A DNA stretch of 19,264 nucleotides from a virus. Under the pieces are notes generated by a model. It worked only from the letters and a program-made list of their open reading frames with translations, was not told the DNA's origin and ran no database searches. Of the stretch, positions 16,125-16,984 are shown piece after piece (within the stretch, counting starts at the first letter, position 1; the number at the start of each line of letters is the position of its first letter). The position numbers were made by a program, and so were the translations under genes. The stretch lies in the IMG/VR virus record IMGVR_UViG_3300021431_000535; one strand, given 5' to 3'.

Positions 16125-16323
16125 TTTATAATAGAGTTTAACGGATCTCTTTAAAACCGTTTATATATGGGCGTGTGGCGGAATTGGCATACGCACAGGA
16201 CTTTCGTCTTAGCAGACATTAAAAGAGAGCCTTATGTTGAAAACAATATAAGTGGAGATGGCTAATTCGGCGAATGGCTAAGAGAACGCCGAGCTAAATT
16301 TTTTGAATAATTTTAAGTAAAAC

Positions 16324-16352
16324 TTGACTTCAAAAAAATTTTATGATATAAT
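16324..16352 (+). promoter_or_regulatory. promoter TTGACT-N17-(TG)TATAAT inside the group I intron, driving the HNH ORF
   Basis: TTGACT at 16324-16329 and TATAAT at 16347-16352. Confidence 0.55.
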
Positions 16353-16377
16353 AAAAGAAAAAAGTGAGGTTTTACTT

Positions 16378-16809
16378 ATGGGAAATTAGAAATATACTTT
16401 AAAAGAAATTTTAATAAAAAATAGTCCTGTTACTCAAAAAGTTTTAAGAGGTTATATTAAAAGACATAATGTAATTCCATATAAGTGTGATGTATGTGGA
16501 TGTGATGGACATTGGCAAAACGGTTAGATTTCATTAGAATTAGATCATATAGATGGAGATAATACTAATAATGAAAAAGAAAATTTGCGTTATCTTTGTC
16601 CTAATTGTCACGCTTTAACAGAAACTTATAGAGGACGAAATAAAAATATTCAATCTAAAGTAATAATTTCTGATTAGACTTTTGTTTAGGCATTACAAAC
16701 TAGTCCAAATATTAGACAAGCTTTAATGAAGATTGGCTTAGCTCCTATGGGAGCTAACTATGCTAGAGCAAAAGACTTATTAGAAAAATATAAAATTATT
16801 CAAAAATAA
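16378..16809 (+). CDS. HNH homing endonuclease (143 aa) inside the intron, with four in-frame TAG codons (codons 4, 50, 100, 104)
   Basis: Walked codon by codon on the displayed sequence. HNH motif CDVCGCDGHW...ELDHIDGDNTNN...NLRYLCPNCHALTE. RBS GTGAGGT. Ends in TAA at 16807-16809. TAGs at 16387, 16525, 16675 and 16687, one of them just before the conserved LELDHIDG block. Confidence 0.6.
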
Positions 16810-16984
16810 ATGTGTAGAGACTATATACCATCTACCTAAATCAAAAATAACATGACATGGTAAAAACATAGTCCAGACTACAACATCTTAATAAGATGGC
16901 TATGGTGACATAGTGTAGTAAGAAAATCCTGGGTCCGAAAGGAATTGAGGGTTCAAATCCCTCCACGCCCACTTAATAAAAATA

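Follow-up and report, generated by a model that had tools for sequence, protein, structure and literature searches.

The split tRNA gene and its insert

We analysed a stretch of viral DNA of 19,264 nucleotides (IMG/VR record IMGVR_UViG_3300021431_000535; this whole stretch is called the window) in which a phage tRNA-Leu(UAA) gene is interrupted within its anticodon by an insert of 719 nt. An initial annotation of this DNA had described the insert as a group I intron carrying an HNH homing-endonuclease gene with in-frame TAG codons. On its plus strand the window carries a dense tRNA array, of which ARAGORN in default mode and the Rfam tRNA model find 15 tRNAs. Both programs skip the region 16169-16972. 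ARAGORN with intron search reports a tRNA-Leu(taa) there, with a 719-nt intron at gene position 36. The gene is composed as follows, all parts lying on the plus strand.

16169-16203, plus strand: 5' exon of tRNA-Leu(UAA), comprising the 5' strand of the acceptor, the D arm, the 5' strand of the anticodon stem, C32, U33 and U34 (ARAGORN)
16204-16922, plus strand: group I intron with an IC3-like core of the bacterial tRNA-intron type (covariation in alignment A1, match to covariance model R1, relative L012 above the RF00028 threshold, see below)
16923-16971, plus strand: 3' exon of tRNA-Leu(UAA), comprising A35, A36, the 3' strand of the anticodon stem, the long variable arm, the T arm and the 3' strand of the acceptor

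If the two exons are spliced in silico (16169-16203 joined to 16923-16971) the result is a clean 85-nt class II tRNA-Leu(UAA) with the anticodon UAA, a long variable arm and a TTCAAAT T-loop. The acceptor GGGCGTG/CACGCCC has 7 bp, and the ARAGORN fold of the joined exons thus agrees with the class II tRNA and perfect acceptor that had been proposed. The 3' exon closes with the discriminator A, CCA not being encoded. The insert lies exactly between U34 (U16203) and A35, its last base is G16922, and with 31% GC it is AT-rich. The ARAGORN intron position and the spliced anticodon place it at the classical tRNA-Leu(UAA) insertion site, as annotated. The other tRNA-Leu genes of the window have GAG and UAG anticodons (ARAGORN), and UUA is read by no other window tRNA.

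The split tRNA-Leu, the intron, the open reading frame (ORF) and its promoter are all confirmed where the initial annotation had placed them, and every structural element of its reading of the locus is supported. The distance between the exon halves has to be corrected from 753 nt to 719 nt.

The insert is a group I ribozyme

To provide a basis for comparison, relatives were gathered from IMG/VR with short words of the window sequence. A 20-mer of the S element matched 21 phage contigs and a 15-mer of P3/P4 matched at least 120. Most of these contigs are 50-550 kb long, and nearly all matches lie inside tRNA genes. With the ARAGORN intron search and boundary rules at least 62 phage tRNA-Leu(UAA) genes were found to contain an intron at U34/A35, with lengths from 191 to 1087 nt.

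The core of the window intron and 26 relatives were combined in an alignment of 27 sequences (A1). P6 interiors longer than 24 nt were trimmed to 10 nt per side at positions given by sequence anchors and not by complementarity, and the alignment was scored on P1, P2, P3, P4, P6, P7, P8 and three P9 helices. Standard pairs fill 91.1% of the 1715 cells, compared to 33-46% if the 3' partners are slid by one to three columns. Changes on both sides occur in 43 out of 68 pairs, and the covariation score is 0.368 compared to 0.07-0.09 in the slid controls. None of 500 shuffles matched the observed value on any of five measures. The insert is a group I ribozyme, with the helices P1 to P9 all present and supported by covariation. 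Its parts are the following.

16198-16231, plus strand: P1, formed by GG(A)CUU/UC (16198-16205, slash at the splice site) and the internal guide GAGAGCC (16225-16231)
16207-16213, plus strand: P1-loop segment UCUUAGC, which pairs with GCUAAGA (16277-16283) as a pseudoknot and substitutes for a local P5 hairpin
16232-16251, plus strand: P2 hairpin of 8 bp, all 8 pairs changed on both sides across the alignment
16257-16261, plus strand: 5' strand of P3, GAUGG, pairing with CCAUC (16828-16832); 100% of cells paired, 3 of 5 pairs covary
16266-16293, plus strand: P4, UUCGGCG (16266-16272) with CGCCGAG (16287-16293) around a 14-nt L5 loop; 100% paired
16300-16313, plus strand: 5' strand of P6, UUUUUGAAUAAUUU, perfect 14-bp complement of 16793-16806
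16793-16806, plus strand: 3' strand of P6, AAAUUAUUCAAAAA, overlapping the final ORF codons
16819-16824, plus strand: P7, R element GACUAU with S element AUAGUC (16868-16873); 99.4% paired, 3 pairs compensated
16833-16862, plus strand: P8, UACC (16833-16836) with GGUA (16859-16862); 99.1% paired, 2 pairs covary
16877-16922, plus strand: P9 domain, outer helix ACUAC (16877-16881) with GUAGU (16915-16919), from covariation and the R1 alignment

The helices P3, P4, P7 and P8 are paired in 99-100% of the cells of A1, and both-sided changes are included in P3, P6, P7 and P8. Variation in P4 is one-sided only, and its motif is also present in bacterial tRNA introns. The P4 pairing and the P7 formed by the R and S elements are those which the initial annotation had pointed out. 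Among the relatives P7 is compensated in the combinations GACUAU/AUAGUC, GAGCAU/GUGCUC, GACCAU/AUGGUC and GACUUU/AAAGUC. At the 5' splice site the wobble pair U16203.G16227 is invariant as U.G in 27 of 27 aligned sequences, and the pairs next to it covary. The P2 loop reads AAAA in the window, whereas most homologues have GAAA.

The hypervariable helix P6 lies between the conserved words GCUAAAU and UAAAUGUGUAGAG, and 91.5% of its cells are paired. Among 31 relatives with long interiors the ends of the P6 interior form on average 9.1 contiguous pairs, compared to 3.6 for ends taken from different introns. In the window the P6 loop comprises 479 nt and holds the ORF. The P9 domain further contains P9a (16884-16889/16893-16898) and P9b (16900-16904/16909-16913, loop GUGA). 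P5abc is absent. A CCUAAA...CAUGG motif inside P8 resembles an 11-nt tetraloop receptor.

The terminal omega-G was correctly assigned to G16922, and ORF-free relatives end in ...GUAGUAAG or close variants. A terminal G was required by the boundary rules for the relatives; it is conserved too in the covariance model R1, which was built without the window.

Two pairings were considered and rejected. A P3 extension drawn by eye (GUG 16252-16254 with UAC 16833-16835) was given up because UAC covaries with GGUA (16859-16862) in P8 and GUG is invariant. A local hairpin in the P1 loop (GUCU/AGAC) is not conserved in the relatives, unlike the complementarity between the P1 loop and the P4 loop.

This complementarity concerns P5. 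Relatives with a P4 loop of 17-19 nt possess a small P5 hairpin there, e.g. AUCUC-ACG-GAGAU. A shorter P4 loop of 13-14 nt is found in the window and in 16 other distinct relatives, with 6-7 nt of it complementary to the P1-loop segment just 3' of the 5' splice site. Seven distinct complementary versions were found, including CCCUGAU/AUCAGGG, CCUUAGU/ACUAAGG, UCUUGGU/ACCAAGA and UCCUAAC/GUUAGGA, and the pairing occurs only where L5 has 13-14 nt. We suppose that a long-range pairing takes the role of P5 here and would link the P1 substrate helix with the P4-P6 domain.

Model searches and the possibility of a dead gene

For a test less circular than the alignment, a covariance model restricted to the 3' domain (R1, from J6/7 to the 3' splice site) was made from 23 relatives, leaving out the window and its nearest relative L013. 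With filters off, R1 gives a single match in the window at 16807-16928 (119.6 bits, E = 6.7e-32); the next score is 17.8 bits. Chance is far from explaining such an arrangement. Rfam at gathering score reports tRNAs only for the window.

The Rfam group I search that had been suggested as a check gave a divided answer. On the window RF00028 remains below threshold: at a relaxed E-value it yields 16 bits (E = 0.21, cut-off 50) for 16194-16352 in a compressed alignment of the 5' part only. The homologues L012 and L365 pass the threshold of the same model, the ORF-less L012 with 54.3 bits. The model misses most introns of this kind, and only 1 of 14 bacterial loci with such tRNA introns passes it. 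We attribute the weak score on the window to the 479-nt P6 loop and to the low sensitivity of the model, and regard it as uninformative.

This score has to be kept in mind if one supposes that the tRNA-Leu(UAA) gene is dead, i.e. that an endonuclease-bearing insertion with a decayed ribozyme separates two halves which are never joined. Splicing of the window intron is deduced from sequence alone, and the window has other tRNA-Leu genes with the anticodons GAG and UAG, which would fit such a loss. Against it, all core helices of the window intron are fully paired, and the compensatory changes within the family are an argument for selection on the RNA structure. The exons still make a perfect tRNA, the U.G pair at the splice site and the terminal G are kept, no other window tRNA reads UUA, and the arrangement is kept in at least 62 phage tRNA-Leu(UAA) genes. 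A dead gene is in our view highly improbable.

The endonuclease gene in the P6 loop

The loop of P6 contains a gene and a promoter of its own.

16324-16352, plus strand: sigma-70-like promoter in the P6 loop, TTGACT (16324-16329), 17-nt spacer, TG, TATAAT (16347-16352), 11 of 12 consensus positions
16378-16809, plus strand: HNH homing-endonuclease ORF of 143 aa in the P6 loop, PHROG 10822, HNH residues present, stop codon TAA at 16807-16809

The ORF had been placed between Q and R; more exactly it lies in the P6 loop, which is closed by the perfect 14-bp helix 16300-16313/16793-16806. As described before, it contains four TAG codons in frame (16387, 16525, 16675 and 16687), and no TAA or TGA interrupts it, for which the probability by base composition is about 8e-5. 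If TAG is read as sense, the product matches PHROG 10822 (E = 1.9e-33) and PHROG 14736 (E = 4.5e-30). It is 40-75% identical to P6-loop ORFs of five other tRNA-Leu introns, and the close homologue in L027 passes Pfam HNH. In the HNH region C37, C40, H57, N69, C74, C77 and H78 show no variation across the aligned sequences, and the window ORF keeps all of them. Opposite the four TAGs the homologues have, in order, E; Q, E or N; E; and N or K. By these matches the ORF is an intact HNH endonuclease gene.

A Shine-Dalgarno sequence GAGG (16366-16369) precedes the ATG by 8 nt. The TTGACT/TATAAT promoter claimed for the ORF is present, with a TG ahead of the -10 element. Eight promoter-like sites with at least 11 of 12 matches occur on the plus strand (494, 2728, 9467, 12579, 13471, 13897, 15578 and 16324), compared to 0.87 +/- 0.89 in simulated sequence, and one occurs on the minus strand. 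The plus-strand sites have the 17-nt spacer, five of them an upstream TG, and all eight lie 25-60 nt upstream of plus-strand genes. Because of this excess and of the position of all eight sites upstream of genes, the site inside the intron is probably a real promoter. The sites suggest a host that uses classical -35/-10 promoters and not one of the Bacteroidota type.

TAG as a sense codon

Outside the intron, the ORF 11743-12198 gives a 151-residue NlpC/P60 protein if six TAGs are read through; with TAG read as Q, residues 49-133 match the Pfam family with E = 8e-11. The stop codon of 16 long standard-code ORFs in the window is TAA in 15, TGA in one and TAG in none. One public assembly of this phage has both the 143-aa and the 151-aa product as called genes. 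The array further includes the following tRNA, about 460 nt downstream of the split tRNA gene.

17433-17504, plus strand: tRNA with anticodon CUA, presumed TAG suppressor (ARAGORN; Rfam tRNA model, 56.6 bits)

TAG is thus a sense codon in this phage, and the recoding described initially agrees with the NlpC/P60 gene, the tRNA(CUA) and the lack of long ORFs ending in TAG. This NlpC/P60 peptidoglycan-hydrolase gene has more TAGs than any other gene of the window, in line with a published proposal that recoding favors lysis genes. Since the first TAG of the endonuclease ORF is codon 4, synthesis of the protein should need the suppressor tRNA, as the initial annotation had supposed.

Among the HNH genes of related introns some have TGA at tryptophan positions (L106, L085, L068), some have TAG (L105, L101, L075, L062) and some have neither (L027, L056). 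Wherever the related ORFs can be aligned, their recoded codons stand at sense positions. One endonuclease family is thus spread over phages with three genetic codes, and its genes appear to follow the recoding of their phage.

The same codons could be taken as true stops, the ORF being a pseudogene and the intron an immobile remnant. In favor of a pseudogene, a TAG at codon 4 leaves no protein without suppression, the Pfam HNH score is marginally under threshold, and among bacterial tRNA introns the endonuclease gene has been lost in many cases (PMC13011429). These points are opposed by 143 codons without TAA, TGA or frameshift, by the intact invariant HNH residues and the identity to relatives, by the kept promoter and Shine-Dalgarno sequence, by TAG as sense in the NlpC/P60 gene, and by the related genes of other phages, which carry TGA at W, or TAG, matching the recoding of the phage. 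We consider a pseudogene very unlikely and prefer an intact endonuclease gene.

Relationship to bacterial tRNA introns

Words of P4 were searched in one genome per bacterial species. About 25 of 120 matches are real introns, the rest being chance matches in GC-rich genomes. The search found 14 bacterial introns in tRNA-Leu(UAA) at the same site, with hosts including Burkholderia, Paraburkholderia, Dokdonella, Xylophilus, Acidobacteria, Opitutus, Vulcanimicrobiota and Clostridia; further matches are Azoarcus-type introns in tRNA-Ile(CAU). At E <= 1e-4 the model R1 recovers 10 bacterial tRNA-Leu(UAA) and 4 tRNA-Ile(CAU) introns. Its best bacterial match has E = 1e-27 (a Clostridiales metagenome-assembled genome, MAG), and the values range down to 1e-4.

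The initial annotation had linked the insertion site to the ancient tRNA-Leu(UAA) intron. Because a model derived from phages recovers bacterial tRNA-Leu(UAA) introns, this link is supported as one of homology: the window intron belongs to the bacterial tRNA-intron lineage and does not merely share the site. The bacterial tRNA-Leu(UAA) introns and the window have in common the core words AAUUCGGCGAA...AACGCCGAGC, GUGUAGAGACUA, CCUAAG...AUGG and AUAGUCCAG, and the bacterial tRNA introns share with it the intron ending GUGGUAAG, followed by AAAAUCC. The lineage of the Azoarcus and cyanobacterial introns is subgroup IC3, of which the window intron is a putative member. Introns of this kind have no P5abc extension, and their GNRA loops on P2 and P9 dock into receptors in P8 and P5.

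The Clostridiales MAG is RUG11012 from rumen (L274, CACWXY010000006.1, about 500-780), with a tRNA-Leu(UAA) intron near the phage type that scores 107 bits with R1. The copy may belong to the host itself or to a prophage, and it provides a lead on the host range of the intron family.

Homology to this lineage is of importance for the way in which the intron is removed. Removal by proteins in place of self-splicing, either by an archaeal-type bulge-helix-bulge endonuclease with a ligase or by an obligatory maturase, has in its favor that many group I introns need protein helpers in vivo and that 31% GC weakens the helices. The group I architecture, however, is complete and covarying, and the type to which the window intron is homologous includes the Azoarcus and Nostoc introns, which self-splice experimentally (for the Nostoc intron, splicing is cited in PMC13011429). 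No bulge-helix-bulge motif was seen at the junctions by reading the sequence, for which no dedicated test was made. Removal by proteins therefore seems hardly credible to us compared to self-splicing.

Mobility, allele differences and distribution

Two contigs of one metagenome (L027 and L172) have flanks of about 98% identity (96-99% on the two sides) and differ by exactly a 780-nt HNH-bearing intron at U34/A35. The comparison with intron-less loci, which had been suggested as a check, is thus precise in this case. A second comparison concerns a strain (L391/L392) with 95%-identical flanks and an uninterrupted tRNA-Leu(UAA) at the syntenic site, between the gene of a 128-aa protein and tRNA-Leu(UAG); here the exons have diverged.

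Public contigs of the phage of the window were located by exact protein matches. Exact words of the DNA had no match among viral contigs, and in metagenomes they matched only cell-like tRNA-Leu genes that lack an intron and are unrelated to the window. The contig L262/L386 is identical through the intron, and L262 stops 5 nt past the tRNA; L263/L387 (ENA ERZ12302815, NODE_23074) ends exactly at 16203, the 5' splice site. These contig ends suggest mixed intron-plus and intron-minus alleles, or repeats, in the samples.

Two further contigs which share the 128-aa gene of the window, L388 (882-1758, 2779-3320) and L390, represent a sister strain. Here the anticodon loops of tRNA-Thr and of another tRNA are interrupted by inserts of 804 nt and 468 nt. 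Each of these inserts holds a PD-(D/E)XK ORF (PF11645). As R1 does not match them, they are assigned to a different intron family. The tRNA-Thr of the window is uninterrupted. The tRNA array of this phage lineage is, by these comparisons, a site of ongoing intron gain and loss.

We further report where else parts of this intron family occur. In L025, L104 and L112 the same family is found in tRNA-Leu(CAA) at 34/35, and the base ahead of the 5' splice site is C, not the usual U, opposite the G of a UUUGAGC guide. In L040, L052, L092, L095, L119 and L127 the same ribozyme 5' core lies in tRNA-Leu(UAG), with an HNH ORF in the P1 loop upstream of the guide. L019 has the same 3' domain in a gene for a ribonucleotide-reductase-like protein.

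The P9a loop of some tRNA-Leu introns (L017, about 745-880; L018, about 8590-8720) contains a tRNA-like element. It has an acceptor-like stem, a GGCGGAAUAGGUAGACGC D arm and a GGUGCAAAUCC T arm, and lacks a normal anticodon arm. In L391 (about 1370-1540) the element is free-standing and adjoins the intron-less tRNA-Leu, which recalls the 'intron that may encode a tRNA' of the Lak paper.

Interpretation and proposed mechanism

Taken together, we consider it very likely that a mobile group I intron of the bacterial (IC3-like) lineage, with an HNH homing-endonuclease gene in its P6 loop, splits the phage tRNA-Leu(UAA) gene. For the window element itself both splicing and endonuclease activity are inferred. 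As a mobile group I intron with an HNH gene the element is of a conventional, ordinary type; its setting is a phage tRNA gene, where such introns have been called 'enigmatic'.

Beside the low RF00028 score on the window, several observations weigh against this interpretation. The homologue set was gathered by words of 15-20 nt of the window and hence is not unbiased. In the ribozyme P1 requires a bulged A, P5 is unconventional in being a pseudoknot and not a hairpin, and no convincing P10 pairing was found in the window intron. The Pfam HNH model (PF01844) gives the ORF 20.6 bits, 0.8 below its gathering score of 21.4. Compared with the other window tRNAs for its identity, the tRNA(CUA) resembles none of them, and this comparison gave no clue to the residue inserted at TAG. 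Finally, the tRNA-Leu(UAA) of L391/L392 differs in sequence, and this polymorphism could be a cassette replacement rather than a simple homing event.

The following mechanism is proposed. The tRNA array would be transcribed and the intron RNA would fold, bind guanosine at P7 and permit its attack after U16203; the exons would then be ligated after G16922 to give a functional tRNA-Leu(UAA). The pairing of the P1 loop (16207-16213) with the P4 loop (16277-16283) could replace P5 and tether the splice-site helix to the P4-P6 domain. A separate transcript from the internal promoter (16324-16352) would be unable to splice because it lacks P1-P6, the 5' half of the ribozyme, and so would serve as endonuclease mRNA, which mirrors the intron endonuclease genes of T4. 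Full-length endonuclease should arise only when the phage tRNA(CUA) decodes TAG, first at codon 4. In mixed infections the endonuclease might cut intron-less tRNA-Leu alleles, and repair would copy the intron in (homing).

A wider picture is offered tentatively, and we regard it as possible though rather doubtful. Intron copies with an endonuclease would home between phage tRNA arrays and may enter bacterial tRNA-Leu genes, the endonuclease would in recoded phages be held back until the suppressor is active, and in the subfamily of the window the P5 hairpin would have been replaced by the loop-loop pairing.

Significance

The proposed reading gives a mechanism for phage tRNA introns, namely a group I ribozyme of standard kind which belongs to the bacterial tRNA-intron lineage and sits at U34/A35. 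It would account for a class of previously unexplained phage tRNA introns, as the same family is found in at least 62 genes and in Lak-C1. Since standard tRNA finders and Rfam miss such genes, the tRNA repertoires of phages, including recoded ones, are undercounted. Three features of phages are thereby connected: large tRNA arrays, homing endonucleases and the reassignment of stop codons. The locus also offers a testable case of an endonuclease whose synthesis may hinge on a suppressor tRNA.

The bacterial tRNA-Leu intron is usually treated as ancient and vertically inherited. Phage-borne copies represent a plausible route for a horizontal spread of tRNA-Leu introns, and transfer into bacterial tRNA-Leu, if true, would help to explain their patchy distribution in bacteria.

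Other genes of the window

At 2788-5265 the window encodes an 825-aa protein that matches two kinds of domain, shoulder and repeat, known from the eukaryotic Major Vault Protein (PF11978, E = 6e-25; PF17795), which is unusual for a phage. A Thg1-family tRNA-His guanylyltransferase (PF04446, E = 4e-31) at 5354-6115 adjoins the tRNA array, and the array has a tRNA-His gene at 18921-18995.

Comparison with known systems

According to a review from 2014 all phage group I introns then known were located in protein-coding genes, despite the many tRNA genes of phages (PMC3984707), and the protein-coding genes of gut jumbo and crAss-like phages contain group I introns in abundance (PMC12880540). The tRNA introns of Lak megaphages were called 'enigmatic' and left unclassified by Devoto and coworkers in 2019 (PMC6784885), and a 2026 survey reports tRNA introns in 77% of alternatively coded jumbo phages with the mechanism not given (PMC13037316). 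In our literature search, which was incomplete, no paper was found that identifies phage tRNA introns as group I.

Among phage elements the td/I-TevI system of T4 is similar: there, too, a peripheral helix of a phage group I intron has a loop that holds the homing-endonuclease gene. The T4 gene has a promoter within the intron from which it is expressed, as is supposed for the window. Introns of the T4 td/I-TevI type differ in being of subgroup IA2, in coding for GIY-YIG enzymes and in residing in genes for proteins, whereas the window intron resides in a tRNA gene and encodes an HNH enzyme.

Lak megaphages and other alternatively coded jumbo phages share with the window the recoding of TAG and intron-bearing tRNAs (PMC6784885; PMC13037316). 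By BLAST, Lak genomes contain matches to the 3' end of the window intron. We further observed that the tRNA-Leu(UAA) of Lak-C1 (L001 889-1623; MK250029, about 331989-332723) contains two introns of group I type, both matched by R1, one of 308 nt in the D-loop (L001 909-1216) and one of 340 nt at U34/A35 (1232-1571). ARAGORN accepts a tRNA-Leu(taa) once both are removed, and Rfam reports nothing relevant on this locus. The Lak intron at 34/35 differs from the window intron in its 5' domain and is ORF-free.

In Agate phages the endonuclease gene of a group I intron is enriched in the reassigned stop codon, and its authors propose that endonuclease synthesis is delayed until the phage switches its code (10.1101/2021.08.26.457843). 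There TGA is read as W and the intron lies in an early protein-coding gene, in contrast to TAG and a tRNA gene in the window.

A 2026 survey of bacterial tRNA group I introns names 34/35 in tRNA-Leu as a classical site and reports that most of these introns have no ORF (PMC13011429). A rare case of an HNH gene in a Bacteroidota tRNA-Leu(UAA) intron appears in the legend of its Fig. 6. As described in that legend it has the same tRNA and the same endonuclease family in a group I intron, but in a bacterial genome.

The closest likeness is to the tRNA-Leu(UAA) introns of bacteria, cyanobacteria and plastids (IC3; Nostoc/Anabaena), which are inserted at U34/A35 as in the window. R1 matches such introns in Clostridiales, Dokdonella, Burkholderia, Acidobacteria and others with E = 1e-27 to 1e-9, a comparison made with bacterial sequences and including no cyanobacterial one. 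Unlike the classical introns, the window intron is part of a phage tRNA array, has an HNH gene looped out of P6 and forms P5 by the pairing of the P1 and P4 loops, whereas theirs is a hairpin.

The Azoarcus-type intron of tRNA-Ile(CAU) has the same P3-P4-P6-P7-P8 core sequence and the same layout of GNRA tetraloops; introns of this type from bacterial genomes were used for the comparison. Four of them are matched by R1 (E = 1.6e-10 to 2e-8), and one passes RF00028 with 64.5 bits. They differ from the window intron in the host tRNA and site, are ORF-free and possess a hairpin P5.

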